Source: Mobula hypostoma (Eukaryota). From it: a stretch of DNA of 64,000 nt. A program made the translations under genes and the position numbers. The stretch is taken from NCBI RefSeq assembly GCF_963921235.1, contig NC_086107.1:103728001-103792000 (forward strand), in the 5' to 3' direction. Below are positions 3,131 to 58,170 of the stretch, piece by piece. Numbering within the stretch: position 1 is the first letter of the stretch; each line of letters starts with the position of its first letter. The notes beneath the pieces were generated by a model that made no database searches, had not been told where the DNA came from, and saw nothing but the letters and a program-made list of their open reading frames with translations.

Positions 3131-3311
3131 CAATTTCTCCCTCACTCTCTTAACTCCTAACCTTGTCTCGATTCATTAGCTTGTATTTTGTGCCAAGATT
3201 CCAGCATCTAAGGGCTCTTGCGTCTCGTTGCTTTCCCCAATGTGGTTTGTGTCCTGGTTTCTACTTCTTGCATTATTCCAATGCTGATGTTGCTCTATTC
3301 TTCCTTGACAG

Positions 3312-3485
3312 TTCAATAAGCACCTCTTTGTCCACATTGGCCAGTCGAGTCGATCTTACAGTGAGGGTCTGCTTGAATCCATTGACATCCGCCAAATCTA
3401 CGATAAGTTTCCGGAGAAGAAGGGGGGCTTGAAGGAGCTGTTTGAGAAAGGAACGCCAAACACGTTTTTCCTTGTCAAATTCTGG
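3312..3485 (+). CDS. TEAD2: TEAD2-like coding exon (YAP-binding domain)
   Basis: ttccttgacag|ttc ... tgg|gtcagt; 174 bp, phase 0-0; [58 protein letters not shown]. Confidence 0.97.
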
Positions 3486-4704
3486 GTCAGTACGAACGGT
3501 CCGGACATTCTGTGTTTCCCGTTTGTAACATCGTGGCTCTCTCCAAACGAACCAGAGTGATATGGCTGAAATGGCCGCACCTCAGGAGAGTTCAATTCTG
3601 CAGAGAGACTTGAATTTGCATTTCTCTCATTCACTCATTCTGTAAGTTTGAAAAATCACCATGGCAACCCTCGATGGGTGATCAGAAAATTCTCTGGAAG
3701 GCTTTAGAACCAGAGCAGGACAATGGGAGTAGGCAAATTAAATGGTTTGACTTTGACTAGATGGGCCGAAGGGCCTGTTTTTGTGCTATACTTCTCTATG
3801 ACTCTATAAGACGGATATGACTAATTTTCATGATGAAATGACTCAAAGAAAAAGGAATCTGTTTATTTTCTGTTAGCAGCACAGACAATGTTGGGAATCT
3901 GAAATAAAAAGATAAACTGCTGGAAAATCTGCAAATTTTGCAAATTCTGTGGTAGAATGTGGAGAGAGTTGATGGGGATCTGGGGAGAATAAACTGGGTT
4001 AGGGCGGGATTAGTGAGTTGTTGATGGTTACCATAGACTGGAGGCCAAGTGGCCTGCTTCTGAGCTGTGTCCTTCCCTCTGTGGTTCTCTGACTCAGAGT
4101 TCAAAGGTTCAAAGTAAATTTGTTATTGTTGTTGTTGGCATCCGTCTGTCTGGAAGGTCAATGGGTGATGTGATCATCATCACAAGCCTGGGCAGAAAGT
4201 ATGGAGATCCTGAGATGCCCAGTCATCAATATCCCCCTCTCGGCCTCACCAGTGTAGTCCAAAGGAAAGCTTATGAAGCAATACGTTTGGCACCAGCTTG
4301 GCAGCAGGAGCTGCTGGAAGGATGTTCAACGACATCCAGCTGCCTGAGGGGCTCTGCTCCAGATTTACTGTCTGGGTTTACTTGTCTCTCCTGAGGCTGC
4401 CCACAAGGCAGTGGGGCTACTTACCCCTAGCTGGGGATCTGGTTCGTGAGCACCAGGGCGTGTCCACACACCGGTGGGCCTGCGTGCTACGTGTGCAGGG
4501 TCCAGACCTCCTCCCCGTCCTCTGTAGTTCAGTTTCCGTGTGTCGCCAGCGAGGAGGCACTGCGTGAGGCTTGTTGTTGGAGAGGCTGTGTACTGTCAAG
4601 GAGAGACTCACACATTCAGCTCTCCGTTTTAACAAGACTGCCAGCCAGCAGTGGAAGCTGAAAGTGAGACGACAAGCACTACCCGCTACACTACCACCCT
4701 AGCT

Positions 4705-5335
4705 CAGGGGTCCCCAACCTTTTTTGCACCGCGGACCGGTTTAATATTGACAATATTCTTGCGGACCGGCCGACCTGGGGGCAGGGGGTGTTCAAGTAGG
4801 GTTAAACTCACCTCAACATGTCTTTTACAGTTAGGGTTGCCAACTTTCTCACTCCCAAATAAGGGACAAAAGTAGCAGTCAAATCCTGGGACACTTTACC
4901 CCTGGAAAGACTACCATGACCATGAAGCCTTGCGCGGGCACCTGTGTGCGCATGCGCGTACGTGCCGATTTCCCCTCCCCCCACAAATCGGTTTTGCCTT
5001 CATCTTCCCGACTACACTGTACATATATTATTTCTATTTCATATAGGCTGTGTATTTATCATATCATTCCTGCTTTCACTATATGTTAGTGTTATTTTCA
5101 TTTTTATGTGTTATTTGGTTCTACCTTAGCGGGGGAAATACAGGACAAGAGCGGTCCCATATGGAACAAACCAATTTAGCCCAATATACGGGATGTCCTG
5201 GCAAATATGGGACAGTTTGCAACCCTATGTTCAAGTTCAACAGTGCATGATAGGGAATGAGGAAAGGGGCAGCTGACTCATATCGTTTCCTCACGGCCCG
5301 GTACCGGTCCGTGGCCTGGTGGTTGGGGACCGCTT
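4705..5335. mobile_element. hAT (Charlie-like) MITE with a second hAT MITE nested at 4797-5227
   Basis: Outer TIRs caggggtccccaacc / ggttggggaccgct with 8-bp TSD ccctagct/ccctagat; inner tagggtt...aacccta flanked by exact 8-bp TSD tgttcaag (4789-4796, 5228-5235). Confidence 0.8.
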
Positions 5336-5389
5336 CCCTAGATGCATCACAACAACCAATTTGACACCAAATTTGTTACAGAAGTATGT

Positions 5390-5960
5390 ACGCACTCAAG
5401 GTGTATACATACTTTTTAGGGGCTTCCTGTACCTAATAAAGTGGCCATTGAGTGTAGGTTCATGGTCTTCTGCTGCTGTAGCCCATCCATTTCAAGGTTC
5501 GAGATGTTGTGTATTCAGAGATGCTCTTCTGCACACCACAGTTGTAACACATGGTGATTAGAGTTGCTGCTGACTGTCAGCATGAACCAGTCTGCCCATT
5601 CTCCTCTGACCTCTCTCATTAACAAGGCGCTTTCTCCCACAGAACTGCCGCTCACTGGATTTTTAAATTTGTTTTTTGCACCATTCTCTGTAAACTCTAG
5701 AGACTGTTGTGCATGAAACTCCCAGGAGGTCAGCAGGTTCTGAAATACTCAAACCACCCCATCTGGCACCAACAATCATTCCACAGTCAAAGTCACTCAG
5801 ATCACTTTTCTTTCCCAATCTGACGTTGGGTCTGAGCAATAACTGAACCTCGTGACCATGTCTATATGCTTTTATGCAGCATTGAGTTGCTGCCATATGA
5901 TTGGCTGATTAGATATTTGCATTAATGAGCAGGTGTACAGGTGTAATAAAGTGACTTGCA
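5390..5960 (-). mobile_element. Tc1/mariner-derived non-autonomous element
   Basis: Transposase N-terminal remnant GKKSDLSDFDCGMIVGARWGGLSISEPADLLG (ORF 5663..5896); same family at ~19390-19927, ~26120-26480 and 44691-45215. Confidence 0.75.
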
Positions 5961-6118
5961 TGTGTATGCCACCATGTACTACCCTGAGACTCATTTTCTT
6001 GCAGACATTCACAGTAGAACAAAGAAACACAATAGAATCAAAGAAAAACTGCACACGGCAGACAAATAACTAATGTGTAAAAGAAGATAAACTGTAAAAA
6101 CAAATAACAATAATAATA

Positions 6119-6440
6119 ATAGATATAGCCATTCCAAACACACATAACTTACAGGATTCAATAAGTGAAAAACAGCAGAAATATGCTGAATTAAAAGAGG
6201 AAATTGAAAGACTATGGAACATGAACAGGTTATACATTGTCCCAATAGTAATATCTACAACTGTCATCATTTCAAAGTCACTACACAACAGCATTAAACA
6301 ATTAGGTCTACACAGCAATATCTTTGTAAATCTCCGGATAGCCACAATTCTAAACACCACCAGAACAGCCCAAAAGTTCCTAGCAATTGACAGATGAGAG
6401 AGATTGGCTATTTCCATACCTCGAGTTTTACCAACTTGAG
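6119..6440 (+). mobile_element. R4/Dong-like non-LTR retrotransposon 3' fragment (restriction-like endonuclease C-terminus)
   Basis: Reads IDIAIPNTHNLQDSISEKQQKYAELKEEIERLWNMNRLYIVPIVISTT..., the D-x-A-x-P...EK..KY..L..E.. motif of RLE-type elements; abuts a (TAA)n run. Confidence 0.65.
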
Positions 6441-7309
6441 CTGGAAAACGTGTAGGTAGGTAGGTATATATAGATAAAGAAAATGATAGATAGACAGATA
6501 GATAACTCTAAGAACATAGAGTCCTTGAAAGAGGGTTCATACGTTTGTAGGTTGTGGCTCTACTGGGCAGATAACATCTATAGAAAGAAAAACAGAGATA
6601 TTACTTCACATCCTTTGTCAGAATTGGAAAAGAGAGAAGACAAATTAGTTTTAAATTGGGTCAAAGAAAAAAAATCATGAGCTGCTAGGAAAACTCAGTC
6701 GGTCAGGCAGCATCTGTGGAGGCGAAGGAATGGTCGACGTTTTGGGTTGTGACCCTGCATCAGGACTGAGAATGAGGAGGGGAGACGAGATGAAGGGGGT
6801 GGGGGGAGGGGAGCGAGGTTTGGGCTGGTGGGTGATAGGTGGATCCAGGTGTTGATTGGCAGACGGAGGGGAAGGGTGGAGAAAGCAACGGGGGATGAGA
6901 TAACGGGTGGAGGCTGCAGATGGCGAGCCCTGTTTAGAAAGGAAGGTGGTAAGGGAGAGCTGGTGGCCTGATAGGAACAGGAGGGGGAAGGGATAGGGGA
7001 CCCAGTAGATTGAGTGGGTGGTGGGTAGATGGAATCATGTGAGGGAGGGGAAAGAAACTGGGTAACAGGAAGCTGGGGTTTAGATGGGGGAGGATGTGTG
7101 AGGGGAGTCGGGTAGATCAGGAAGAGATTGGAAAGAGAGTGGGTTACCTGAAATTGGAGAATTCAGTGCTCACTGTGTTGGGTTGCTGACCACACCGGTG
7201 GAAATTAAGATGCTGCGCAGACACTGTGGGGTAGGGGGAAGGAGGGGAGGGGGGAGGGAGTGATCAGACAAAGGTAATCGCTCTGATAGGAAGAGAAGAG
7301 GATTGCAGA

Positions 7310-8200
7310 ATCACGATCAGGTTCATTACCACTGACACCTGTGGTGAAATGTATTGCTTCGTGGCTGCAAGACATAAGGTTTGCTATAAATTACAAAATA
7401 AATAAAAAGCACAAGAGACAGATAACGGCGTGAAGTTCGTGGGTTCGTGGACTATTCAGAAATCCGGTGACTGAGGGGAACGAGCAGTTCCTAAAATGAT
7501 GAGTGTGGGTCTTCAGGCTCCTGCACCTCCTCCTTGATGGTAGCAGTGAGACCAGGACAGGTCCTGGGCGGTGAGGGTTTCTAATGATGGATGCTGCCTT
7601 CTTGAGGCGCGTCCTTTTGAAGATGTCCGCGGTAGTGGGGATCACTGTGGCTGTGACGGGGATGGCCGAGTCCGCAGCCTCCTTTGATCCTGTGCACTGG
7701 AGCCTTCTTACCAGCTGGTGCTGTAACCAGTCAGAATGCTTGGTCTCCAACGTTCTGTATATCTATAGAGCTTTGCTAGAGTCTTTGGTTGCAGACAAGA
7801 TCTTCTCAAACCCCTAATGAAATGAAGCTGTTGACATGCCTCCTTCATGGCTGCATCAACGTGCTGCAACCAGGATAGATCCTGTCAGACGCCCAGAAAC
7901 CTGAAGCTGCTCACCCTTTCCATCTCCGGCCCCTCAGTGAGGACTGGTGTGTGCTCTCTCAACTTCCCCCTTCCCGAAATCCAAGCCAGTTCCCTGGTCT
8001 AGCTGATGTTGAGTGCAAGGCTGTCGTCGTGCCACTGCTCGAACCAGCCGACCTATTTCACTCTGAGATTCTGCCAACAATGGCGGTGTCATCGGCGAAT
8101 ATATAGATGGCATTTGGTCTGTTCCTAGCCACGCGGACACAAGTGTAGAGAGTGTCGAGCAGTGGGCTAGGCGTTCACCCTTAAGGCAGGCCTGTGTTGA
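7310..8200 (-). mobile_element. Rex-Babar/L2-type LINE 3' fragment, degraded
   Basis: ORF remnants KKAASIIRNPHRPG...LLPSRRRCRSLKTHT..FRNCSFPS, homologous to ORF 43489..44220. Confidence 0.7.
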
Positions 8201-8346
8201 TTTCAGCTAGCTGATTGAATCACTTTTCCAGCCTGACGGCAGTCTCCCAAGAGGAAGTCAGAATCCTAAAGCAAAGGGAATGATGATATTGGGTGGGACG
8301 ATGTGAGTCTTTGATTAAACCTAATACTTATTCTCTCCTCTTTCAG

Positions 8347-8487
8347 GCCGACCTTAGTATCAATATCCAGGACGAAACGGGCCTGTTTTACGGGGTTACC
8401 AGTCAGTATGAAAGCATTGAAAATATGACCATCACTTGCTCCTCCAAGATCTGCTCCTTTGGCAAACAAGTTGTAGAAAAGGTTGAA
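8347..8487 (+). CDS. TEAD2: TEAD2-like coding exon
   Basis: ctcctctttcag|gcc ... gaa|gtaagt; 141 bp, phase 0-0; [47 protein letters not shown]. Confidence 0.97.
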
Positions 8488-8909
8488 GTAAGTTCCCGTT
8501 TCCTTCGTTTGGGCCTACTTCATCACGATGTACAGCAGAACTGTAGGAACCCGGTATCCTGTTGTAAAGATCCCGACGGAGGCGCACGATGTCGGAATCT
8601 CGAGCAGCAAACAATCTGCCGGAGGAACTCAGAAGGTGTGGGGAGCAAAGGAATAGTCTCATGCAGGCTTTCGGCCTGAAACGGCAACAGTTCCTCTCCC
8701 CTCACAGATCCTGCCCCCAAGAGGTCCAGCACCTTGTTGTAGGGTCTGGAGGCTTGCCTACCTCAATGACCCGGAGGGCTATGTTGGCTGGGGTCAGGGC
8801 CTTGTACTTGATGCTTGGTAGAGTCACCCATGCCAAACAGGTCAAAGGGTAGAGGCCAGACTAAGAGCGGTCCACCAGTCCTCCAGGTTTGGGTGTTCAG
8901 CTCAGGGCT

Positions 8910-11682
8910 GAAGGAGGGCTGTGATTGCCAACTAAATATTCCTGGATTTAATTGCTTCAGGTGTGATAGAATCAGAGGGACAAGAGGGGGAGGTGTTGCA
9001 TTGTTTGTCAGAGAAAATATTACAGCAGCGCTCTGGCAGGATAGATTAGAGGGCTCGTCTAGGGAGGCAATTTGGGTGGAATTGAGGAAAGAGAAAGGTG
9101 TAGTAACTTTTATGGGGGTGTATTATAGACCACCAAATGGAGAGTGCGAATTGGAGGAGCAAATTTGTAAGGAGATAGCAGATGTTTGTAGTAAGCACAA
9201 GGTTGTGATTGTGGGAGATTTTAATTTTCCACACATAGACTGGGAAGCCCATACTGTAAAAGGCCTGGGTGGTTTGGAGTTTGTAAAATGTGTGCAGGAT
9301 AGTTTTTTGCAGCAATACATAGAGGTACCAACTAGAGAAGGGGCAGGGTTAGATCTCCTGTTAGGGAATGAGATAGGTCAGGTGACGGAGGTTTGTGTTG
9401 GGGAGCACTTCGGGTCCAGTGATCACAATGCTATTAGTTTCAATATAATTATGGAGAAGGATAGGTCTGGACCCAGGGTTGAGATTTTTGATTGGAGAAG
9501 GGCTAACTTTGAGGAGATGTGAAAGGATTTAGAAGGAGTGGATTGGGAGAATTTGTTTTATGGGAAGAATGCAACAGAGAAATGGAGGTCATTTAAAGGT
9601 GAAGTTTTGAGAGTACAGAATCTTTATGTTCCTGTTAGGTTGAAAGGAAAGGTTAAAAGTTTGAGAGAGCCATGGTTTTCAAGGGATATTGGAAACTTGG
9701 TTCGGAAAAAGAGAGATATCTACAATAAATATAGGCAGTATGGAGTAAATGAGGTGCTCAAAGAATATAAAGAATGTAAAAAGAGTCTTAAGAAAGAAAT
9801 TAGAAAAGCTAAAAGAAGATATGAGGTTGCTTTGGCAAGTAAGGTGAAAATAAATCCAAAGGGTTTCTACCATTATATTAATAGCAAAAGGATAGTGAGG
9901 GATAAAATTGGTCCCTTAGAGAATCAGAGTGGACAGCTATGTGTGGAGCCAAAAGAGATGGGGGAAATTCTGAACAATTTCTTTTCTTTGGTATTCACTA
10001 AGGAGAAGGATATTGAATTGTGTAAGATAAGGGAAACTAATAGGAAAGTTATGGAAACTATGATGATTAAAGAAGAGCAAGTACTGGAGCTTTTAAGGAA
10101 TATAAAAGTGAATAAGTCTCTGGGTCCTGACAGGATATTCCCTGGGACCTTGAGGGAAGTTAGTGTGGAAATAGCAGGGGCTCTGACAGAAATATTTCGA
10201 ATGTCATTAGAAACGGGGATGGTGCCGGAGGATTGGCGTATTGCTCATGTTGTTCCATTGTTTAAAAAGGGTTCTAAGGGTAAACCTAGCAATTATCAGT
10301 CTGTGAGTTTGACGTCAGTGGTGGGTAAATTGATGGAAAGTATTCTTAGAGATGGTATATATAATTATCTGGATAGACAGGGTCTGATTAGGAACAGTCA
10401 ACATGGATTTGTGCGTGGAAGGTCATGTTTGACAAATCTTACTGAATTTTTTGAAGAGGTTACTAGGAAAGTTGACAAGGGTAAAGCAGTGGATGTTGTC
10501 TATATGGACTTCAGTAAGGCCTTTGACAAGGTCCCACATGGAGGCTTGGTTAGGAAGGTTCAATTGTTAGCTATTAATATTGAAGTAGTAAAATGGATTC
10601 AGCAGTGACTGGATGGGAGGCACCAGAGGGTGGTGGTGGATAACTGTTTGTCAGATTGGAGGCCGGTGACTAGTGGTGTACCTCAGGGATCTGTACTGGG
10701 TCCAATGTTATTTGTCATATACATTAATGATCTGGATGATGGGGTGGTAAATTGGATGAGTAAGTATGCAGATGATACTAAGATAGGTGGAGTTGTGGAT
10801 AATGAAGTAGGTTTTCAAAGCTTGCAGGGAGATTTAGGCCAGTTAGAAGAGTGGGCTAAAAGATGGCAGATGGAGTTTAATGCTGATAAATGTGAGGTGC
10901 TACATTTTGGTAGGACTAATCAAAATAGGACATACATGGTAAATGGTAGGGCATTGAAGAATGCGGTAGAACAGAGGGATCTAGGAATAATGGTGCATAG
11001 TTCCCTGAAGGTGGAATCTCATGTGGATAGGGTAGTGAAGAAAGCTTTTGGTATGCTGACTTTTATAAATCAGAGCATCGAGTATAGGAGTTGGGATGTA
11101 ATGTTGAAATTGTACAAGGCATTGGTGAGGCCAAATTTCGAGTATTGTGTACAGTTTTGGTTACCGAATTATAGGAAAGATGTCAACAAAATAGAGAGAG
11201 TACAGGGAAGATTTACTAGAATGTTACCTGGGTTTCATCACCTAAGTTACAGAGAAAGGTTGAACAAGTTGGGCCTTTATTCTTTGGAGTGTAGAAGGTT
11301 GAGGGGGGACTTGACAGAGGTGTTTAAAGTTGTGAACGGGATTGACAGAGTTGACGTGGATAGGCTTTTTCCATTGAGAGTAGGGGAGGTTCAAACAAGA
11401 GGACATGGGTTGAGAGTTAGAGGACAAAAGTTTAGGGGTAACATGAGGGGGAACTTCTTTACTCAGAGAGTGGTAGCTGTGTGGAACGAGCTTCCAGCAG
11501 AAGTGGTTGAGGCAGGTTCGATGTTGTTGTTTAAAGTTAAATTGGACAGCTATATGGACAGGAAAGGAATGGAGGGTTATGGGCTGAGTGCAGGTCGGTG
11601 GGACTAGGTGAGAGTAAGAGTTCGGCATGGACTAGAAGGGCTGAGATGGCCTGTTTCCATGCTGTAATTGTTATATGGTTAT
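8910..11682 (+). mobile_element. CR1 LINE, 5'-truncated, nearly complete ORF2 (APE endonuclease + RT) with two in-frame stops
   Basis: ORFs 8815..9522, 9538..10608 and 10630..11607 share one frame; motifs GVYYRPP, GDFNFP, SDH, QHGF, DFSKAFDKV, GVPQGSVLGP, YADD, TRGH; gttatatggttat tail. Confidence 0.95.
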
Positions 11683-13324
11683 TAAAAAAAATTGTTGAGG
11701 CAACAGCGATGAAGAAAGGCTTCATGGATGCCCAAGGTGCCAGTGGTGTTACAGGTATTTGCCGTTGTACAGATGCTGCTCGGCCCCTGAGTTCCTCAAG
11801 CAGATAGTTACTTGCCATATAAAGTCCAAAAGGTTCGGAATGGTTTCACTGTTTCCCAGCCTCCCTTTAAACACAACAGGTTCCCCCGGAGAATTTATTG
11901 TACTACTGTGGTTCATGCTTATGAATGAAACCATGTTGGGGCAACGTCCAAAAATACACAAAATCTGTTCCTTCCAGCACTGTCAGTGTGCTTAGAGTGC
12001 CAGATTATTGGAGCTAGAGTGGAACAAGATGGGCCAATTTTGCAGACTATTGGATTTGTTCGAGTGATTTTGGGGTTTAGGGCATGTACATCTAGCAATT
12101 GACTTTGGCTACCAGTCTTCAGATCTGAATATGGATTGTGGATTTAATTTGGAGTGCAACTCTGAACAATGGGCTCCTCAGAACTGTGAATCCCAGTCTA
12201 GACAATGCTGATTCAAACTCGTTTGGATATCTATGGTGTAGATGTGAATCAGGAGATGTGAAGGTCATATGCAGTTTCAAAGAAAGCATTGTCCATACAT
12301 TGTGAATATGGAGTTGTCCTTTGATGTTTGGCACATAAAATATCAAGCCTCATGTTGGGCCAGCAGACCTTTCGACCAAAAGTGTCTTCATATGATGCCT
12401 GCTGTACCTTGTTTTGTTGAATGAAGAAGCTGCTTTGTGTCTCTGGTAATGTTCTCTGGTGACTTCATTCACGCAACAGCAGATATTACTCCGGTATCCA
12501 AACAACCCAAAACACAATTTTGTTTCACCTGTTATACTGAGGAAGAATTCCAGATGAGTTTAAAGGGAAGCTGGGCACCTCTGGACACCAGCTCCTGCTG
12601 CAAACCCACTGTCGTTCTTGATCCCTGGGCTTCCAGACCCCAACCCAGCTCAGGGCTCGGACCCCAGACCCACCACATCTCAGACCTCCAGGTCTGCTCA
12701 CGCACACCATCTCCTCCCTTACCTCCCCTCCCCCCAAAACTCTGGACACTCAGCTCACTTTCCAGATGAATGAGAGAACGGGATGCCAAATTTTCAGAAC
12801 AATCAGTTGCAAGGTTATAGGAGCATTTTTCAATGATTGACTTGTGGAGGAAGAAACTGTGTGGACAATTTAATCGTCTTTACACCTTTGGCACTGAAGG
12901 TCCCAATCTTGTTATTTTTTCTATTTTCTGCCCTGGTGGAAAATCTTACTGTCCGGGCAGCTTGTTATTCTTTCTTTTTAAATCTTTTTATTAATTTTCA
13001 AAATTATAAACTCAATAACAAAATTGGTACAAAGAGATTGGAATAATCTTAATCAGCATATATTAAAAGGATTTTAAGTAACATAGGTATAATAAACTTC
13101 CAAACTCATAATGAAATTAGTCATATAAAAAGAAAAAAATATATATATAAACAAAGAAAAATCCCCAAAAGAAAAAGAAAAAAAAAACCCAAAAGGAAAC
13201 AGGGCTAGACCAATATCCTGAATCAGACATGTTCAGTAATGTCGTCCCAGACAGCTTGTTATTACCTTTTCCACCTCAGTGCCCTGGGTTCTCACTGAAG
13301 GATGCCCCTGTTTATCTCCTCCAG

Positions 13325-13477
13325 ACAGAATATGCCCGGTTTGAAAACGGCCGCTTTCTGTACCGGATCCATCGTTCTCCGATGTGTGAGTACCTCGTCA
13401 ACTTTATCCACAAGCTGAAGCAACTGCCTGAGAAGTACATGATGAACAGTGTCCTGGAGAACTTTACCATTCTGCAG
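13325..13477 (+). CDS. TEAD2: TEAD2-like coding exon (contains the conserved palmitoylated Cys, RSPMCEY)
   Basis: tttatctcctccag|aca ... cag|gtacga; 153 bp, phase 0-0; [51 protein letters not shown]. Confidence 0.97.
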
Positions 13478-15194
13478 GTACGATTGTTGGCAAATAAATA
13501 AACTGAATTTAGACGAAATGATCCGACTGTCAGCAACATGCCTCTTCATGATGGTTGCTGTGATTAGCATCACTTGTGGGATCTTTTAAGGTTTTATTAC
13601 TAGTCTTAAATATACACTTGTTAAAAATTCATCGACTATTTGAAGTAACTGGCTGGTCATTGAATTTTCTTGCATTTGCAAGCTGCAGTCTGATAAAAAA
13701 TATTACTTTATTGAATGCAGGCAATTTAATGCATGGTCTGAAACGTACAACCAGAATGCTCCGTGCATTAGGTTTACAAATGTGTACATTTATACTCACA
13801 GGCATGCTGCAGGTCACTCTTACAGGAAAACTGAATACCAGAAGCTGTCCCGGCTGAAGAGAGTTTCCCCTCACTTCCACCACTCCCGAGTCTCTCTCCC
13901 CTGGGGCCCTAATCCCAGGCCTGAAGCCTGATGGATTTCCTTTGAAAATTCCACCTTGGGCCTTGTGCTGTTAAATTTCCTATGTCTGGGACCTCATCAC
14001 ATGTTTGTTGTTCAACATTGTTGTTTGTTGTACAGCACCGTACAGGCCTGTCGGCCCATGACATTGTGCCAACCTTTTAACCTACTCTAAGATGAATTTA
14101 GTCCTTCGCTCCCACTTAGCCCTCCGTTTTTCTATCATCCACGTGCCTCTCTAAAAATCCCTAATGTACCTGCCCCTACCATCACCCCGGCAATGCATTC
14201 AATGGTTCAATTTAAAATCGAAGAATGTATACAGTATGCAACCTGTAATTCTTACTCTTTTCAGACGTCCACAAACCAGAAAAAAAAATTACAAAGAATG
14301 AATGAGAGAAAGCATTAGAACCCCAAGCACCCCCCCCCCCCGCCACTTCCGGACATCCCACCTCTCCCGGAAGTTCCGGGAGTCTCCTGCATATTAATAG
14401 TGGCTCCCTGATGCCCGCAAATTATATACAATATCCCAGAAATCAATTTTTTTGAGAGCGAGAGAGCGCAAGAGCGAGAGGGAGAGCGTGAGAGAGAGCG
14501 AGCATGCGAGCGACCACGCGAGAGGGAGAGAGAGAGAGAGAGTGCGTGCTAGAGAGAGAGAGCGCGCACGCACGCTATGGGAGAGTGTTCCAAAAAAAGA
14601 AAATATAAACGTACGTCACCCCAGACTACACTAAAATGTACCCCTCCCTAATAGGGGTCAAAAATAATGACAGTGTTGCTCGCTGCGCGGTTTGCAACAG
14701 TGACTTTTCTATTGCCCATGGTGGGTTAAGACTGTAAAAGACATGTTGAGGTGAGTTTAACAGGTGCCATTCGTTCATTAGCATAGCTAACGTTATTTAA
14801 ACTAGCTGGCCAGCTGCTAAGGAGCTACTCTGTTGCAGACATCCCACCTCTCCCAGAGGTCTCCCGCAAATTGATGGTGCTACCTCCCTGAAATGAGTTT
14901 TTGCAGGGTGGGTTGTCTGCACTTCCCCCTTTGACACACAAGCAGTGGCAAAAGCATCAACCACCCGCTTCCCCACACTTGCTCCAGCAACAGCATCAGC
15001 CCCCTCCCCACCACCCACCGTGCACGAAATAGCAACGCCCCCTAGAGACGCTGATCTAGAGTCTGTGAAAATCTACTGTCTATCCCAACACTTTGGCGTC
15101 TCAAACAGGCCCTCTCCCTCACACACCTGCCACTCTGTAAAAACTTACCTCTGATATCAGCCCTACCTCCCTCCAAACAGGTTGATTCCATGCC

Positions 15195-15415
15195 TTGCCT
15201 TGTGCCCTTAACTCCTGGTGGAGTTGTCTGGGCGCCATCATGACAAGATTTTCACCAGTCTGTTCCATCTGTCGCGGTTGTGTGCCAGAGCCTGGGTCAC
15301 CGCAAATGTTTTCCCCTGTCCATTCTTTAATGTTGTCCGTCCATCTTTTCCTCTGTCTACCTCTCCATCTTTTCCCCTCCACAGTTCCCTGTAGACTGGT
15401 CTTTGCAAGGCCACA
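15195..15415 (-). mobile_element. RTE-clade LINE 3' fragment
   Basis: KTSLQGTVEGKRWRGRQRKRWTDNIKEWTG...LAHNRDRW, the characteristic RTE C-terminus. Confidence 0.75.
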
Positions 15416-16791
15416 TTTGCAAAACACGTCGATGTTATGCCATAAATAGAGGTCATAACTTTAAGGTGGGCAGTAAGAGATTTACAGTAGCTTCTGCATA
15501 TCGACCATTTAACACAATTTGGCAGTATTCGCCAAATTCTACCCCAATAATGTGAGTCCTTAGTTCTTCCATTACTTTTCTTGCTCCGATATTCTCATCA
15601 TTTTATTTCATTTAATATTTGGAATCCACAATTTAAACTGTACATAGTACTCTCATCAATACATATTCACAGTCACCCCATTATTTCAGTATTTATGTCC
15701 TACAATATCGAGGCTTCTGTTGGTCAAAGTTGACCATGGTTGTGCGTCCTAGCTGTCTAGATACACGACCCTGGACAGTACGATATGGAGGGCAAGCCGT
15801 TGCCCGAGTACCGAGCTCCCCCTCTCCACGCATCTGATGAGCCTAGAGAAACAGCAGAGACCGATATAGTTTGGCACCAGCAGCGCCACAGGAGTCAACG
15901 GTCAGTGTTGGACTCAATGTAGGGGCTCCAGCACTGGATTTTTTCCCTTGGGGTTTACTCCAAAGTGGGTGTAGCTGCAAGGCGGTGGAGGTTTGAAATC
16001 AGAGTTTTCCTTCTCTTGGATGAGCTGCCAACCACAGCTGACGAGCCCAGTCTGCCCGAAGCGGCTGGTGTTAAGGCGCCTGTAAAACGCCTTTGCCCCT
16101 TCTGGTGGAAACGGTTCCGCCAGGATTAGGAGCTAAGCCACACGTGAAGGTCAGGAATTGGACTTTGTTATCAGAAGCCATTTGAGATGCACACCATTGG
16201 GAGCATTTAATAGGTAGTGGGAACTTATCCCCATTACCACCCCCCCGGGTATAACAACTTTAAGGAACCCTACAATACAGAGCCATACTCGTTGCTTCCT
16301 CTGCCCGTGTCTAGTTGCATGGACCTGTGTGGTCACCCCATCCCAAATCTCCTCAGTTGTTCACTGCCTGGACCCCATTCAAGATTCAAGTTTATTTATC
16401 GTGTGTACGTCAAACACACAGTGAAGTTTGTTGTTGTGGTGTTCGCCGAGCTTGGCAATCAGCCTGCAGGTTTTCTCTCCGGGAGTGCTCGCGAGCTGAG
16501 CGCGTCGCCTCGACTGGCAGTGAAACGTCCGCCAGCTGGTCGCCAAGCTCGGCGAACACCGCGACATCAAATGCCTCAACCCGAGCTACCGACATTCACC
16601 GCCGTCCTAAATACAATGAAACAACCAACACACTCGAGGTGTGCTGGGGTGGGGGCAGGGCCAGCCCACACGTGTGGCTACACATCCCAGCACCAACACC
16701 GTACACCCATCACATTCCACAGCTCAACACCCTCTAACTGTGTCCTTTCTTCATTTGAATAACTATCCTGACTTTCTCTAATCTCTTCCAG

Positions 16792-16905
16792 GTAGTAACC
16801 AACAGAGATACACAGGAACTACTCTTGTGTGTTGCTTATGTCTTTGAGGTCTCAACAAGTGAACACGGAGCCCAGCATCACGTCTACAGACTCGTGAAAG
16901 ACTAA
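16792..16905 (+). CDS. TEAD2: TEAD2-like terminal coding exon
   Basis: ctctaatctcttccag|gta ... gac taa; [37 protein letters not shown]; stop at 16903-16905. Confidence 0.97.
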
Positions 16906-24320: not shown

Positions 24321-24326
24321 TTTATT
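24321..24326 (-). terminator. Polyadenylation signal AATAAA of the neurotensin-like gene
   Basis: tttatt on + strand, ~65 nt downstream of the TGA at 24393-24391 on the minus strand. Confidence 0.7.
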
Positions 24327-24390: not shown

Positions 24391-24549
24391 TCAGCGGAGA
24401 GGCAGCGGAATTCCGAGGAAGCGCCACAGGATGTACGGCCACTTCTTGTTGGAGTTAAGTTGCCGCTTCAGGATGTACGGTGACCTTTGGCGGCTGGATT
24501 TCTTCAACATTCGCCTCCCGTTTTCCTTCCATGTTTCACACAGCAGGGC
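24391..24549 (-). CDS. Neurotensin/neuromedin N-like precursor, terminal coding exon (peptide-encoding)
   Basis: Strong acceptor ctaactctgcctgtttctgtccgcag|; phase 0; ALLCETWKENGRRMLKKSSRQRSPYILKRQLNSNKKWPYILWRFLGIPLPLR*. The tandem PYIL-KR-QL..NK..PYIL pattern matches the NTS C-terminus (human KRKIPYILKRQLYENKPRRPYILKR). Confidence 0.9.
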   Translation of the reverse strand, partial: ALLCETWKENGRRMLKKSSRQRSPYILKRQLNSNKKWPYILWRFLGIPLPLR

Positions 24550-25903
24550 CTGCGGACAGAAACAGGCAGAGTTAGGGACCAGAGTCCGGTGGAATCCCTG
24601 CCCGCTGGGGTTAAAGGACTGTGTATGTGCGTGGCTGGGAGGGATGATGGTTTTGTTCTATGTTGTTTCTCTCACCTTATTTCCTTACCTGCCCATCACC
24701 TCCCTCTGGTGCTCCTTCCCCTTCCCTTTCTTCCGCGGTCTTCTGTCTTCTCCTCTTCTCCAGCCCTGCATCTCTTTCACCAAGCAACTTCCCAGCTCTT
24801 TAATTCACCCCTCCTCCCTCCCGGTTTCACCTTTCACCTTGTGTTTCTTCCTCCCCTACCCCCACCTTCTAACTCTGACTCCTCATCATCTTCCTCCAAT
24901 CCTGACGAAGACTCTGTACTCTTCTCCATAGATGCCGAGTTCCTCCAGCATTTTGTGTGCATTGCGTGGGCTTGTTGTGTTGGTTTATTTATTTATTTAT
25001 TGGGATACAGTGCAGAACAGGCTCTTCCAGTCCTGCAACCCCCGATTTAATCCTAGCCTGACCTCGGGTCAGGTCACTCGTCTGAGTACTACTGGTACCA
25101 TGTAACCCAGTACTACCTGTCGCATAGTCGGGTGGTCGGCGACTAAACCGGCTCCCCCCACCAGGCTTACCCGTTGAGGAGGGTGGCTAGACATCCTGCA
25201 GGACGAAAAACAAGACCTGTCAAAGGGTGGATGAACCCTCTCGTAGGGTCAATGGCCATCTAGCAAACACGTGCCGGGAAGCGGGGAAAGGGCATCCCTC
25301 GCATCGAAGCTTGGTCTGGCCATTCACTGCAACAGAACTTCCCCCGGCCGTCTTGGACCCCACCGTGCAGCTGGATCCGGGATGGGATGTCGAGAGGGTG
25401 GGTCTGGACCTGTGCAACCCCCTACTCACCTAAAATCCACTCAAGCACACGCTGTTCCTTTCTGAGGAGTGCGGTACCACCCCACCAACTGAGTGAGAGG
25501 AACCATCATCATCCAATGGGATGGATAGCCAGAGAGAGAGAGAGAAGATCCTAGCCTAATCACAGAACAGTATACAATGACCAATTAACCCACCAACTAG
25601 TAGGTCTTTGGACTATGGGAAGAAACTGGAGCACCCGGGGAAAACATACAATCTCCTTACAGGCAGCAACGGGAATCGAACCCGGGTCACCTGTACTGCT
25701 AACCACTGCACTGCTGTGCCGACCTATGCTGGTGCCAGAATGTTTGGCAACGCTTCAGCACACCCACAGGCGTGTTGGTTTTCAACGCAAACAACACACT
25801 TTGCTGTACATGTGGCAAATATAGTTAAATCTTGAATCTTGACCAATCAGCATTCAGGAAATCTCCTGCAGACATGACGTACCAAATCGGAGAGTTAATC
25901 TAC

Positions 25904-26086
25904 CTGGGACGTTTGGCATTTTGAAGCGGGCCCTGGTCTTCGGGTGCGGTTCGAACTGAAAGGGGCAAGGTGTAGGGAGTTTGAGCTCAGTGATAGATTG
26001 TGGACAAGGCGCTGGTGAACCAATGTCAGGGAGAAGAGCTGACTAAGAGGTGTGGATGGAACACACGGACGGCTATCAGGATCTCC
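25904..26086 (-). CDS. Neurotensin-like precursor, coding exon 3 (predicted)
   Basis: ttctgatcctgtattgtcatgcgtag|gga ... cag|gtagat; 183 bp open, phase 0-0; GDPDSRPCVPSTPLSQLFSLTLVHQRLVHNLSLSSNSLHLAPFSSNRTRRPGPASKCQTSQ; TLVHQRLVHNLS weakly resembles human NTS TLLNVCSLVNNLN. Confidence 0.6.
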
Positions 26087-26544
26087 CTACGCATGACAAT
26101 ACAGGATCAGAAGGTACAACATCCAGTGAGTGGCCGTTCTGTGTGTGAAAATGCCTTGTTAGTGAGAGCGGTCAGAGGAGAATGGACAGATTGGTTCAAG
26201 CTGACAGGAAGGCGACTGTAACTCAGGTAACCTCGCATTACAACAGTCCTGAAGAAGGATCTTGGCCTGAAACGTCTATCCACTTCCGTACATGCCGCCT
26301 GGCCTGCTGAGCTCCTCCAGCATTTTGTGTGTGTTGCGTTACAACAGTGGTGTGCAGAAGAGCAGTTCTGAATGCATAACACGTCAAACCTTGAAGGGGG
26401 AGGGCTACAGGAGCAAAAGGCCATGAGCATGCTCTCAGTGGCCAATCTATTAGGTACAGGAGGTAATAAAGTGGCCAGCGATTGTACATTTGCCTTCTAA
26501 TTACATTCTCCCGCAGAGAGTGAAATCGATAAACGTATACTCAC

Positions 26545-26603
26545 GTGCGGGTTTTGCAGACCCTCACTGTAATCTTGTGTCATCACTGAAGGCAGCTGGA
26601 GTT
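26545..26603 (-). CDS. Neurotensin-like precursor, coding exon 2 (predicted)
   Basis: gtcttgttcgtttttatccag|aa ... cac|gtgagt; 59 bp; only the phase 1 to 0 frame is open: (E)LQLPSVMTQDYSEGLQNPH; size and phase resemble the short NTS exon 2. Confidence 0.7.
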
Positions 26604-28152
26604 CTGGATAAAAACGAACAAGACGTACGTCAAGGTGAGGGAGCGTTTGAATCGCACAGGCAGAGACAAGGCCTTCGACGATCTGCCGCCAGCTTTCAAT
26701 GGGTTACTTCAGACGTCTTGGCATTAGGTTTCACCAGCTCCAATCACCGGTCTGCCTGTTCTGATTCAGATTTACTTATCACGTGTACTGTACATCGAAA
26801 CATACGGTGAAATGTGTTCTTTGCATTAACAACCGCTTGGCAAAACAACACAGACAAGATTGTTTAATGCCACTTCCAGTACACAAGTGTAAAGGAGAAC
26901 AAAATAATTATTACTCCGGGTCTGATGTAGCTCCAAAAAAACACTTTCCGATAAAGAACACAATAATAGTAAAAGCTCAGGATAGCTTATATTCATAGGT
27001 AGATTGTATGTCCATAAATGACACTAGGCACAGGAGTGTCTGGGCATAATGTGTCCGACAGGAAATGATAAATAATGGTGGTGGGGTGTGTGGAGGGGTG
27101 GATTAATGGGTGGAGATGTAGATCAGCCACACTGCTCGGGGAAAGCAATTGTTTTTGTGTCTGGCGTGAATATGGTGCAGTCTCCTCCCTGATGGGACTG
27201 GGACAAACAGCCCATCAGCAGTGTGGGTGGGTGTACTATTCTATGTTCTATGAAACTAAAGAATCTTTGACTTATTTGAACTAATAGTTATTAATAAAGA
27301 ATGATATTTGTCAGGCAAAGTCACTTGCCCTTTCATTGAACTGTTCGCACCACCAATGGACTTGGTTTCAATGACTCGTCATCTCATGTCCTCAATATTT
27401 ATTGCTTATTTCCCTATATTATTGTTTCTTATTTTGTATTTGCAGTTGGTTGTCTTCTGCACTCCGGCTGATCACCCTAGTTTGGTGGCCTTTCATTGAC
27501 TCTTTTATAGTTACTATTCTATAGATGTGTTGAGTATGCCCACAAGAAAATGAATCCCAGGGTTGTATATATGTATTTTGATAGTAAAATTTACTTTGAG
27601 CTTTGAACTTTAACCAATACGTCTTTGGACTGTGGGAGGAAACTGGAGCACCCGGAGGGAACCCATGTGGTCACAGGGAAAGCATGCAAATTCCTTACAG
27701 ACAGTGGCAAGAATTGAACCCCAGTCACTGGTGCAGTAAAACGATGTGCTAACCACTATACCACCGGAGATTACCGTATGTCCTGGGTCTGTGCTGAACC
27801 AAACCAAAACAAAGACGCAAGAGACCGCAGATGCGGCCTCTCTTTTCTGCCCTTCAAGCTATGCCCACTCTGAAGAAGGCTTCCTGCCCTCTCCAACAGG
27901 AGCTCTGTGAGACCCTCTCTCACTGCTCCTCCTCTGTGGTTTCTGCTGCCGTCCTGCTCTTCGACCACACTCTCACCCAGACTCACCAATCCCGGCCCCG
28001 GTACTTGTCCAGATCCTCAACACAGGAATAGGAACAGGCCCTCGATGTCTGTGCCAAGCATGATGCCAAATTAATCTAAATCTCTTCTGCCTGCAGATGA
28101 TCTCTATCCCTCCATTCCCTGCGTATTCCCATGTCTATATAAAAGCCATTAT

Positions 28153-31100
28153 TGTTGTGTCTATTCACAACTACATATCAATTAAGTAAAAGCACGCACG
28201 CGGGAGATGGCTTTAACTGGTGTATTCGCATAGCAGCATGAGAGAGAACAATACACATGTGTAGACAACAGCACATGCGCAGACGGTAGATCAATATGTA
28301 GTGCCAGGGGGTGGGGGTGATCATTGCTCTAAAAGAAATAGATCCATACATTACACTTCCTCCCCCTTTGGATTAATGTAACGTAAACCCGATTATGTAC
28401 CAAAACAATCAATTTCCCTTTCATAAGCCAATATTCCAAATAAACGTGCTTTCACAGTAACAGTCCATAACTAACTTCACAGTTCTAAAGGTTCAGTCTT
28501 TTGGGGGGCGCTTTGTTTCTTTAAGGACATCGCCTCTGGACCAGTGGAGTGGATCAGGTTTGGTAGGTGTCTTGTCTAAGACAATGCTCTCGGTTTCCCT
28601 TGCCACGTTGCTGTCGGTGACATGATCATCACTGAGAGGTAAGTCAGTGGCTGTAATGTGTCCTTCTTGTTGGATGTAGTCGACTCAGGTGTGTTCTTTG
28701 ATTGAGCGTCCAGCATCTGGTCCACATGACGTCTTCATGTCTGATCTCCAATATTAGATTAGATTAGATTATGAGGACGTGCAGTCCTCATTTATTGTCA
28801 TTTAGTAATACATGCATTAAGAAATGATACGATGTTCCTCCGGTGTGATATCACAGAAACACAAGACAGACCAAGACTGAAACTGACAAAACCACATAAT
28901 TATAACATATAGTTACAACAATGCAAAGCAATACCGTAATTTGATAAAGAATAGACCATGGACACGGTAAAAAAAAAGTCTCAAAGTCCCGATAGCCCCA
29001 TCATCTCATGCAGACGGTAGAAGGAAGAGAAACTCTCTCCCTGCCATGAACCTCCAGCGCCGCAAACTTGCCAATGCAGCACCCTGGAAGCACCGACCAC
29101 AGCCGACTCTTGAGTCTGTCCGAAAACTTCGAGCTTCTCCGACCAGCCCTCCGACACCGAGCACCGAGCACCATCTCTGCCGAGCGTTTTGACCCCGGCC
29201 CCGGCCGCCGAGCAACAGGCAAAGCCGAGGACTTGGGACCTTCCCCTCCGGAGATTCTGGATCACACAGTAGCAGCGGCAGCGAAACAGGCATTTCAGAA
29301 GTTTCACCAGATGTTCTTCCATGCTTCTCACGTCTGTCTCCATCAAATCAGGATTGTGTATGGCATCCTACTTAACAAATAACAGATATTCATTCCGGAG
29401 TGGCAGCTGCACGCTGCGTCGCGCCGCCATCTTCTCTTCACTGTATACATCAGTGGTCCAGTTCTTATAGCTATCCCGCCAGGTATGCACTTGTCTTCTC
29501 GGTAATCATGTGCTGGGACTTCCTGTCCAATCACGAATCTCCTTGCTGGTTGTCTTAGCAACTGGCTGAGCTGTTTATTCTGCACTTCCCTCCTTAGATC
29601 TGCTTCAGGAGGTCTATGCGAGATCTCAGATGCCTGTACGTGAACAGCATTACTGGTGTTTGATTTATCATCACATGGACAGAATTCCAATACACAAAAG
29701 GAAGTTGTCCACCTTGTGCTGTAGAGAAATATCCTCCTTGTCCATTGCTTTAATGGATTTCTTGAAGGTTTAGATAAACCTTTCAGTGAACCCATTCGTT
29801 GTTGGGTGGTGAAGAGCTGATTAGAAATGTCTGAGACCATTTTTCTTCATGAACAGTCGGAGTTCTTCTGATGTGTATTGTGGTCTATTGTCACTCACTA
29901 TTTGTTCTGGTAAGCCATTTCTGGCGAAGATCATCCTCAGAGTGGAAACAGTCTTTGCTGAGGTGGTTGACTTCATTGGTATAACCTCCAGTCACTTTGA
30001 ATGAGCATCCACAATATTTCAAGATAACATTGTGTTCCTGGGGTATCTTGGAGCACTTGGTGCATTGCTCTTTGCCAAATTGCTGGAGCTGATGCGATGC
30101 CAAAGACAAGGTGATTATACTGGAACAGTCCCTTGTGAGTGTTGATTGTCAGGAACTTCCTGCTTGTCTCCTCAATCTCCATTTGCAGATAGGCTTGTGA
30201 CAAGTAAATCTTTGAAAACCTCTCCCCACCTGCCAACGATGCAAAGATGTCTTCTATTCGTGACAAGGAGTACTGCACCGTACACAGCACTGGGTTGATG
30301 CTCACCTTGAAATCCCCACATATGTGAACGGCCCCGGCCTTCCCTGTCTTGATCACCGGGACAATGGGCACAGCCCAATCTCTCCACTCAACCTTGGAGA
30401 GAATTCCAGATGCCTCTGAGCTCTGCAGTTCAGCGTCCACCTTAGGATGTAATGTGTAAGGCACGGGACATGCTTTATGCCTTGGAATCTTGGTGGTGCT
30501 GTTTCATCCAGTTCAACTCTGGTCTTCATGCCTTTGAGTTTACCAATCCCCTTCTCATCAGCATTAAGCAGTTGTTCCAGTCTCTGTTTAGTGCTACCAT
30601 TTGGGCTGCCATTGCCTGTTGATATTACACTGAGAGCTTTGATTGAGTGCCGGTGTAGGTGGATTTTTCTCAATTCACATCCAAAAAGAGCTGGCCTTCC
30701 ACCTTTCAATACATGAAGCTCTAACTGCTGTGTTTGGCCTCCATACATCACATTTACTTTCAGGTTGTCTTTGGGAGGCACTTTTTCACTTGTGTAAGTC
30801 TTTAGCGTCACTGAGGTCTTCTCTCATGGTATCTCAGAAAACAGTCTATTGTAGTCAGCCTCTGGAATTATGGACAAAGTGGACCCTATATCCAGCTCCA
30901 TTTTCAGTTTTACACCAGACACATCTATTGTGATCCGTATTATACTGTGATCTGCTTCAGTTATGCTATGCAGCTTTAGGCATGACAGCTCACCCTATGT
31001 TGTCTGATTCTGTTTTACATTCAGTAACTTTATGCATTTGCTTAGTTTTGTGTTTGAGACTTTTCTCTCAGTTGTGCTTTTTGTCTGCCTTGCACACTCG

Positions 31101-34992: not shown

Positions 34993-35053
34993 CTGTGGAA
35001 ACTCTGAGCATTCCTGCCAAGATTCCGATCACCCACAGCGGGTAGAAATTCAT
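34993..35053 (-). CDS. Neurotensin-like precursor, coding exon 1 (signal peptide)
   Basis: Acceptor ctttgtgtttgtatttccag| at 35064, Kozak accgccATGa, MNFYPLWVIGILAGMLRVST+g, donor cag|gtgaga in phase 1, compatible with the 59-bp exon; hydrophobic core typical of a signal peptide. Confidence 0.75.
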
Positions 35054-35519
35054 GGCGGTTACACCTGGAAATACAAACACAAAGTGACCAGTCAGCCAGG
35101 AAGTTGCCAACATTCGACATTGGTATGACATTGTGGGGACCAGCGTGGCAATATCGAGGGTGTGATTCCCTGCTTGTTAAACAGCAGGACACAGGGTCTA
35201 AACTAGGTTTGTCAGAAACTTTCTGGAGCTCATCAGATTTTACTGATGAGGGACACTGGAGTTGGTAAGGACAACTTGTCCAGTCCCAACCATCACCCTC
35301 CTGGTACAGTCTGGCAGGCTCGAGACTTCACTGTGCTGAACCAGTAGATGTTCTGGGCTCACCATTGTCATTATGTGCTGTGTCAATTATTATCTATTCC
35401 AGACTATTGCATGTTATTTCTGCTGATACCTCAACACTCTTAATTCCACTTTTTCTTAACATACTGAATCCCTAAAAATTTATTTTCTAGTGAACCAGGT
35501 AAGGTGAAAGGGTAAGTTT

Positions 35520-57700: not shown

Positions 57701-58170
57701 CTGCCACTTTTACTTTTCTCCTTAGTACTTTTTGCTTCTACCCTCATTTTACACCCCTCTGTCTCTCTGCACTGGTTCCCATCCCTCTGTTGTGAACTAA
57801 CCTCCTCACGCCTAGCCTCTTTAATTTGATTCCCACCCCCCAACCATTCTAGTTTAAAGTCACCTCAGTAGCCCTCGCTAATCTCCCTGCCAGGATATTG
57901 GTCCCCCTAGGATTCAAGTGTAACCCGTCCTTTTTGCACAGGTCACGCCTGCGCCAAAAGAGGTCCCAAAGATCCAAAAACTTGAATCCCTGCCCCCTGC
58001 TCCAATCCCTCAGCCACGCATTTATCCTCCACCTCATCGCATTCCTGCTCTCACTGTCGCGTGGCACAGGCAGTCATCCCGAGATTACTACCTTTGCGGT
58101 TCTTTTTCTCAACTCCCTTCCTAGCTCCCTATATTCTCCTTTTAGGACCTCATCCCTTTTCCTACCTAAC
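54709..58170 (-). mobile_element. CR1 LINE, near full length: ORF1 esterase (SGNH-like) part plus ORF2 with two frameshifts
   Basis: ORF1 ...WRINAWLRDWSRGQGFKFLDLWDLFW...DGLHLNPRGT (57849..58067); ORF2 pieces 55804..57843, 55439..55828, 54812..55411 with APE and RT motifs; (tttctatgt)n tail at ~54709-54738. Confidence 0.95.

Follow-up and report, generated by a model that had tools for sequence, protein, structure and literature searches.

A divergent, spliced gene of the neurotensin family in sharks and rays, likely a second copy, with a predicted neuromedin N-like agonist in one peptide slot and an altered peptide in the other

Neurotensin is usually treated as a single-gene system. Convertase cleavage of such precursors is followed by carboxypeptidase trimming, there are rules for cleavage at a single Arg, and the extended or "large" form of neuromedin N is active. 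The neurotensin precursor is processed by prohormone convertases (PMC8876516, PMC5339424). NT(8-13) is described as the minimal active fragment, with charges at positions 8 and 9 that are important, and the carboxylate of Leu13 forms a salt bridge with Arg327 (PMC7291367, PMC7840143). Neuromedin N is an endogenous agonist that is weaker than neurotensin at NTS1 and equal to it at NTS2 (PMC13242166). Xenopsin and contulakin-G illustrate that a short C-terminal motif on another scaffold suffices for agonism at neurotensin receptors (PMC3731216, PMC8859281); both arose independently of the neurotensin gene (NTS) and so are convergent mimics.

A profile search, in which 6 of 231 candidates passed E 10 (including two orthologs that we describe below), recovered canonical precursors from sturgeon, echidna, a galaxiid fish, and platypus, at E values of 1.3 to 3.9. 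With a second platypus record that was found separately, this gives a canonical set of five (including sturgeon XP_058883873.1, echidna XP_038612704.1, and platypus XP_007668279.2). All five read KR-KSPYIL-KR-QLH...RRPYIL-KR: a neuromedin N slot (slot 1) and a neurotensin slot (slot 2), each followed by KR.

The locus lies in a 64,000-nucleotide stretch of the genome of the ray Mobula hypostoma (hereafter the window). A first-pass annotation, made from the letters alone, had noticed a rewired cassette of this kind. The cassette is on the minus strand, which had not been given earlier, and it reads exactly as was stated, from 24516 to the TGA at 24393-24391. It belongs to the last coding exon (exon C) of a gene whose precursor has three coding exons and 92 residues and is of the neurotensin/neuromedin N type (Table 1). 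With slightly more belief than doubt, we read this as a divergent, spliced member of the neurotensin family in sharks and rays that is likely a second copy; its slot 1 is predicted to yield a neuromedin N-like agonist, and its slot 2 would no longer activate neurotensin receptors.

Table 1. Positions of the peptide gene's features and of the neighbouring gene, counted from the first letter of the window.
Feature	Positions	Strand	Evidence
TEAD transcription factor gene, 3' exons	3312..16905	+	Pfam YBD, last exon with TAA, PDB matches
AATAAA polyadenylation signal	24321..24326	-	Sole AATAAA on the minus strand between 23000 and 24500
Coding part of exon C (52 codons, then the stop), with both peptide slots	24391..24549	-	Translation, Pfam, sawfish match, contigs
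W-R replacing the final KR, and a hydrophobic tail of nine residues, the last of them Arg	24394..24426	-	Sequence
Slot 2, 12-residue former neurotensin, one residue shorter than canonical	24427..24462	-	Sequence; K-W-PYIL common to sawfish
KR convertase site between the slots	24463..24468	-	Invariant in 8 of 8 sequences
Slot 1, neuromedin N-like hexapeptide RSPYIL	24469..24486	-	Sequence comparison
RQ replacing the canonical KR before neuromedin N; candidate single-Arg cut	24487..24492	-	Alignment
Upstream basic pairs RR (24516-24511) and KK (24504-24499)	24499..24516	-	Sequence, ortholog alignment
Exon B (59 nt, phase 1 to phase 0), pro-region	26545..26603	-	tblastn with sawfish protein, splice sites
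Exon A: ATG at 35053, hydrophobic signal-peptide-like segment, phase-1 donor	34993..35064	-	tblastn with sawfish protein, splice sites

The closest relative of this gene is in a sawfish (Pristis pectinata LOC127585424, XP_051898809.1; NCBI's name for it is "uncharacterized"). The second ortholog is from a bamboo shark (Chiloscyllium punctatum chiPu_0019899, GCC21428.1, a "hypothetical protein" of 95 residues) and was found at E=1.4e-9 by a HMMER scan of 1.84 billion representatives, which gave four hits in all, two of them further long proteins at E 4e-5 and 9e-4. A word-indexed homolog search with sawfish residues 115-265 returned only the sawfish protein itself (1 of 68 candidates), and ESM Atlas searches with both orthologs gave no usable match. 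Both orthologs are gene predictions, and they were compared as protein only.

All 52 residues of exon C align to the sawfish protein, with 79% identity (E=2.9e-18). All 14 positions of slot 1 and its flanks are identical, as are 9 of 15 in the preceding spacer, 3 of 6 where slot 2 begins, and 15 of 17 between K-W and the stop, with one change in the nine-residue tail. The sawfish protein thus shares K-W-PYIL-W, the length of the tail, and the position of the stop, but it has Pro instead of Arg after the second Trp (W-P rather than W-R) and no KK within slot 2. Its model also has about 60 additional residues in the middle and an N-terminal extension of 114 residues, and neither was found in the window. 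The bamboo shark protein keeps the leader, the segment encoded by exon B, and RQ-KSPYIL-KR-QL, so that S-x-RQ-[RK]SPYILKRQL is preserved there as well, but its middle has about 18 additional residues, and it stops after the seventh residue of slot 2. Further upstream, the KK that is common to the window and sawfish reads KE in bamboo shark, and the position of RR reads KR in bamboo shark and KQ in sawfish. The bamboo shark stop falls on the position of the Trp in one alignment and is shifted by one residue in another. We dropped the idea that this stop proves an ancestral Trp, as an Arg codon is also one change away from a stop and the alignment is ambiguous.

The upstream exons are conserved too. 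By tblastn, exon A is 79% identical to the sawfish protein over 24 amino acids and exon B is 89% identical over 18, and the two are 46-50% identical to the bamboo shark protein; this closer likeness to sawfish points to a ray as the source of the window. GT-AG splice sites with phases 1 and 0 join exons A, B, and C into one frame of 92 residues; the acceptor of exon C has a pyrimidine tract and CAG/G at 24550/24549. Residues 1-20 of the precursor have a hydropathy of 1.3-1.9, as a signal peptide would, and UniRef labels the bamboo shark ortholog a "Secreted protein". There is a good acceptor 11 nt before the ATG (35054-35064, minus strand), and the sawfish model extends in frame upstream of this point; both hint at another 5' exon beyond exon A. 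The first intron of the peptide gene also contains broken reverse transcriptase and integrase pieces of a retroelement (29824-30503, minus strand).

Between exons B and C, the sawfish model has about 60 residues and the bamboo shark model about 18 where the window has none (24550-26544). In all six frames of the window, the middle residues of the sawfish model have no counterpart (the best local score is 49, on the other strand), and this 2-kb intron holds no in-frame middle exon of 20-300 nt. Intron candidates at 25955-25904, 25955-25883, and 25625-25594 were rejected: they are out of frame, and 486 of 1000 shuffles reach their likeness score (the splice-site weights were approximate). Nor did an apparent resemblance between the sawfish middle segment and canonical exon 3 hold up against shuffles (1949 of 2000 and 558 of 2000). 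Either a middle exon was lost in the window's lineage, or the sawfish and bamboo shark models include intron sequence. Both models have a Gln just before the last exon, as a read-through of the acceptor's CAG would give.

The cassette is more than a chance resemblance. Exon C matches the Pfam family Pro-NT_NN (PF07421) with E=7.8e-5 and 23.2 bits, which is under the gathering cut-off of 25.3 bits (the full sawfish protein scores 18.9 bits); it has the sawfish match; and SPYILKRQL is invariant in all eight aligned sequences (the window, the two orthologs, and the five canonical precursors). The word PYIL alone is cheap, as it occurs four times in the six frames of the window. As had been observed before, both PYIL motifs use the same codons (CCG TAC ATC CTG). 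The probability of this is about 0.03 from local codon use, which is mildly unusual but was noticed post hoc, and each of the codons is the commonest for its residue in this gene, so we give the identity no weight.

Public contigs also cover exon C. We examined contigs from four of the seven matching public runs (X1, X2, X3, and X5), which come from three studies, with X1 and X2 belonging to one study; no run is recorded as RNA, and our labelling of them as RNA is a guess. On exon C, X1 shows no differences over 235 letters, X2 none over 239, X3 one over 197, and X5 11 over 173, at low depths of 3.5 to 14, which are a poor measure of expression. Three of the four contigs break at the acceptor of exon C: X1, X2, and X3 leave the genome at 24548, after which come 162, 63, and 102 letters that do not match the intron, as expected of spliced RNA. 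Because joint tables were dominated by repeats, the join of exon B to exon C was deduced from lengths, assuming contig words of 31 letters. A direct join predicts 3+59+1=63 letters before 24548 and a branch end at 26577, and both match in X2, which supports the join in that run. Another X2 contig, over 26577-26903, contains the end of the intron and the first 27 nt of exon B with 0 differences; it represents either unspliced RNA or DNA in the run. At the other end, X1 and X2 finish 7 and 11 nt past the AATAAA, although contigs cannot prove where an RNA ends. To the extent that these runs are RNA, which is our guess, the contig breaks show a spliced gene.

These data also bear on the two Trp codons that flank PYIL in slot 2. 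The first-pass annotation had allowed that orthologs might retain RRPYILKR and that the Trp codons might be peculiar to this species or be assembly errors. The sawfish protein has K-W-PYIL-W and the same tail, so the Trp residues are not species-specific. Nor are the codons assembly errors, given that public contigs carry exon C and break at its acceptor.

How does this gene compare to NTS? Both encode a hydrophobic leader and, in the last exon, a tandem cassette with SPYILKRQL and a second PYIL. The layout of the last exon is similar: 21 residues precede the hexapeptide in the window, as compared to 22 in platypus (counted from the exon-skip junction). NTS has a middle exon of 75 codons between exon 2 and the last exon, for which the window's gene has no counterpart; there are annotated NTS records without this 75-residue segment, namely a platypus record of 93 residues and a sturgeon record that is similar in length (91). 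The pro-region of NTS does not align with the elasmobranch gene. Before neuromedin N, all five canonical precursors have KR, while all three elasmobranch sequences have RQ. Canonical neurotensin has 13 residues and ends in basic-basic-PYIL followed directly by KR, whereas slot 2 of the window has 12 residues and ends in K-W-PYIL followed by W-R (W-P in sawfish). And whereas chicken NTS sits between RASSF9 and MGAT4C (excerpts of PMC9498448), the gene of the window adjoins a TEAD gene. Because it departs from NTS in six features (a score under the Pfam cut-off, the loss of two KR sites, the altered motif of neurotensin, the lack of the middle exon, and another neighbourhood), we do not file it as NTS proper. 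Nor do we consider it to be a mimic: because the two-slot cassette and the KR-QL junction are kept, it is a homolog.

Slot 1 has a basic residue, any residue, and PYIL, and then the dibasic KR (RSPYIL-KR), which allows a free C-terminal Leu. It is the only slot that keeps its C-terminal KR, and, as the first-pass annotation held, only this slot can give a free PYIL-COOH; slot 2 has no downstream KR. The same annotation considered slot 1 to be intact, which we accept in part. The hexapeptide is intact, because neuromedin N of the canonical species normally has Ser before PYIL (the hexapeptide is KSPYIL in bamboo shark and in the canonical precursors that we retrieved). But slot 1 is rewired on its upstream side, because the canonical KR reads RQ in all three elasmobranch sequences.

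From these features, we would expect slot 1 to be processed as follows. The N-terminal hydrophobic segment would take the precursor into the secretory pathway, a prohormone convertase would cut at the invariant KR, and a carboxypeptidase would trim the product to ...[RK]SPYIL, whose carboxyl would be free. With RQ in place of the upstream KR, the product should not be the six-residue neuromedin N. Its N-terminus might be set by a cut at KK, which would give a ten-mer in rays; or the pro-region might stay uncut, which would give a long form; or a cut after the invariant Arg might give a seven-mer that starts with Gln and could cyclise to pyroglutamate. The pyroglutamyl seven-mer is our own proposal and draws on R and Q being invariant in three sequences. 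It is a point against the seven-mer route that, three places upstream of the single-Arg site, the rays have a basic residue but bamboo shark has none. Our best reading is that the working ligand would be an N-terminally extended or pyroglutamyl [RK]SPYIL.

The cut at KR would also free slot 2, as a 23-residue peptide that starts with Gln, or with 22 residues after loss of the last Arg. As was noticed at the outset, Trp replaces the Arg before Pro in this slot; its codon (TGG, 24441-24439) corresponds to neurotensin position 9, which therefore has no charge. Given this Trp, and because PYIL is buried before an extension of ten or eleven residues, slot 2 should not act as an agonist of neurotensin receptors. 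It had been suggested that cleavage after W-R could expose a shorter peptide, but this is weakened by the W-P of sawfish. There is also an extra KK within slot 2 (24447-24442, minus strand), directly before the first Trp, that could free a short peptide starting with Trp; sawfish reads NK there, so this KK is not conserved. Slot 2 would then be a co-released by-product under at most moderate constraint, and the elasmobranch gene probably produces a single signal of the neurotensin type together with an altered second peptide.

It is possible, if on the whole unlikely, that slot 2 of rays has instead been selected for a new job, as a ligand for another receptor or as a membrane-active peptide. 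It would be a pyroglutamate-capped Trp peptide of 22 or 23 residues, with a hydrophobic, Pro-rich tail, and it would be released together with the slot-1 agonist. One argument for this is that the 15/17 identity from K-W onward, with the same stop in the window and sawfish, exceeds the 9/15 of the spacer and is poorly explained by a mere by-product. If nucleotide differences of 10 to 25% are assumed, the neutral probability of that identity lies between 0.27 and 0.002. Also, the KR-QL that would release the N-terminus is invariant, and slot 2 appears without any difference in X1 and X2 (the single difference of X3 is within its 197 letters). A receptor might be found in the orphan clade near GPR39/NTSR that has been reported in gar, other fishes, coelacanth, and amphibians (excerpts of PMC6504862). 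On the other hand, the bamboo shark model ends within slot 2, which we count as a sign that the slot is dispensable. Charge and amphipathicity also differ between the two rays: the peptide of the window has a net charge of +4 and a hydrophobic moment of 0.62, as compared to +2, 0.37, and four prolines in sawfish. So the cationic, amphipathic character, which had been raised as a possible function, is not conserved between these two sequences, and this argues against a conserved role of that kind. Finally, cartilaginous fishes have a slow substitution rate, and two sequences cannot separate selection from slow substitution.

A more elaborate proposal, which strikes us as rather improbable, is that an ancient NTS duplicate of sharks and rays had both of its slots rebuilt. 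Slot 1 would give a pyroglutamate-capped, seven-residue neuromedin N via the new single-Arg site, and slot 2 of rays would be a new Trp-containing hormone of 22 residues with its own receptor, perhaps an orphan that is NTSR/GPR39-like. The homolog searches did not find such a duplicate in bony vertebrates.

Returning to our preferred reading, the sequences suggest that this gene is likely a second, divergent copy that is distinct from the main neurotensin gene. The precursors of sturgeon and platypus share 58% identity from end to end; the bamboo shark protein has no BLASTP alignment to sturgeon neurotensin outside of the cassette. The neighbourhood is different as well. The peptide gene ends tail to tail with the TEAD gene, which has Pfam YBD matches at 3309, 8287, and 13151 and a stop (TAA) at 16905. 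The TEAD gene is itself divergent, and its exons match different human TEAD subtypes best: depending on the exon, the best PDB match is TEF-3, TEF-1, TEF-5, or TEF-4. A stretch of 20 residues, picked post hoc, favours TEF-4, and the last two exons carry TEAD2-like residues, so the neighbour may be the elasmobranch TEAD2. TEAD and RASSF paralogs share duplicated chromosome blocks, which would fit an origin of the second copy by whole-genome duplication.

We scanned frames of at least 55 codons against Pfam below 24300 (150 of 199 frames), above 45000 (150 of 159), and on the plus strand between 24300 and 45000 (81 of 81), as well as minus-strand frames of at least 45 codons between 24500 and 45000 (116 of 117). 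Besides TEAD, the matches above the cut-off were to reverse transcriptase, endonuclease, and integrase domains, with one match to ALKBH8_N. Among the scanned frames, to the end of the window, there was no RASSF9 or MGAT4C, although short exons could escape such a scan and the 5' neighbour is beyond the window. LINE-type endonuclease and reverse transcriptase frames lie at 8812-11607 (plus strand), inside a TEAD intron, and at 55442-57864 (minus strand).

If this were instead the sole true neurotensin ortholog of elasmobranchs, which moved beside TEAD, diverged strongly, and signals by neuromedin N-like peptides only, then other neurotensin genes should be missing from these fishes. We strongly doubt this. 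Neurotensin genes are annotated in cartilaginous fishes, which counts against relocation, and NCBI did not give the sawfish gene a neurotensin name. It is true that our homolog searches found no canonical chondrichthyan neurotensin, but all of them were seeded with the divergent gene and barely reached the canonical precursors, so their silence means little. The immunoreactivity for LANT-6, a hexapeptide related to neurotensin, in Squalus brain (excerpts of PMC12417487) would also fit a relocated ortholog. We would be equally surprised if the whole gene were a slowly decaying duplicate that is still transcribed but gives no useful peptide: the gene has kept just one of the three canonical KR sites, rays have an altered slot 2 and bamboo shark a truncated one, the sawfish middle segment has no counterpart in the window, and contig depths are low, but the frame, the splice sites, and the hydrophobic leader are intact, slot 1 with its flanks is unchanged from sawfish, SPYILKRQL survives in a shark, and exons A and B are highly similar to those of sawfish.

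Full-text searches on neurotensin in cartilaginous fishes, or on its paralogs, in a literature that covers few subscription journals, gave no description of such a gene, although supplements of genome papers could mention one. The excerpts of PMC12714231, PMC13311285, PMC8876516, PMC12343078, PMC5339424, and PMC2698874 have nothing on a shark neurotensin gene or on the rules of single-Arg cleavage. The nearest report is the LANT-6 immunoreactivity in Squalus, and such staining does not tell which gene is the source. What is new, judging from the sequences, is a conserved, divergent and still unnamed member of the neurotensin family that sharks and rays carry, in which both slots are altered.

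If slot 2 merely drifts, then the value of this finding is reduced to that of a new annotation. Otherwise, the gene offers a natural case of a two-peptide precursor with one slot that is kept and another that is altered in one lineage and cut off in another. It also supplies short, cheap peptides for elasmobranch receptors and their orphan relatives. And if sharks and rays do have a second precursor, then it would be a new member of the neurotensin family and would bear on how the ligand followed the duplications of its receptors.
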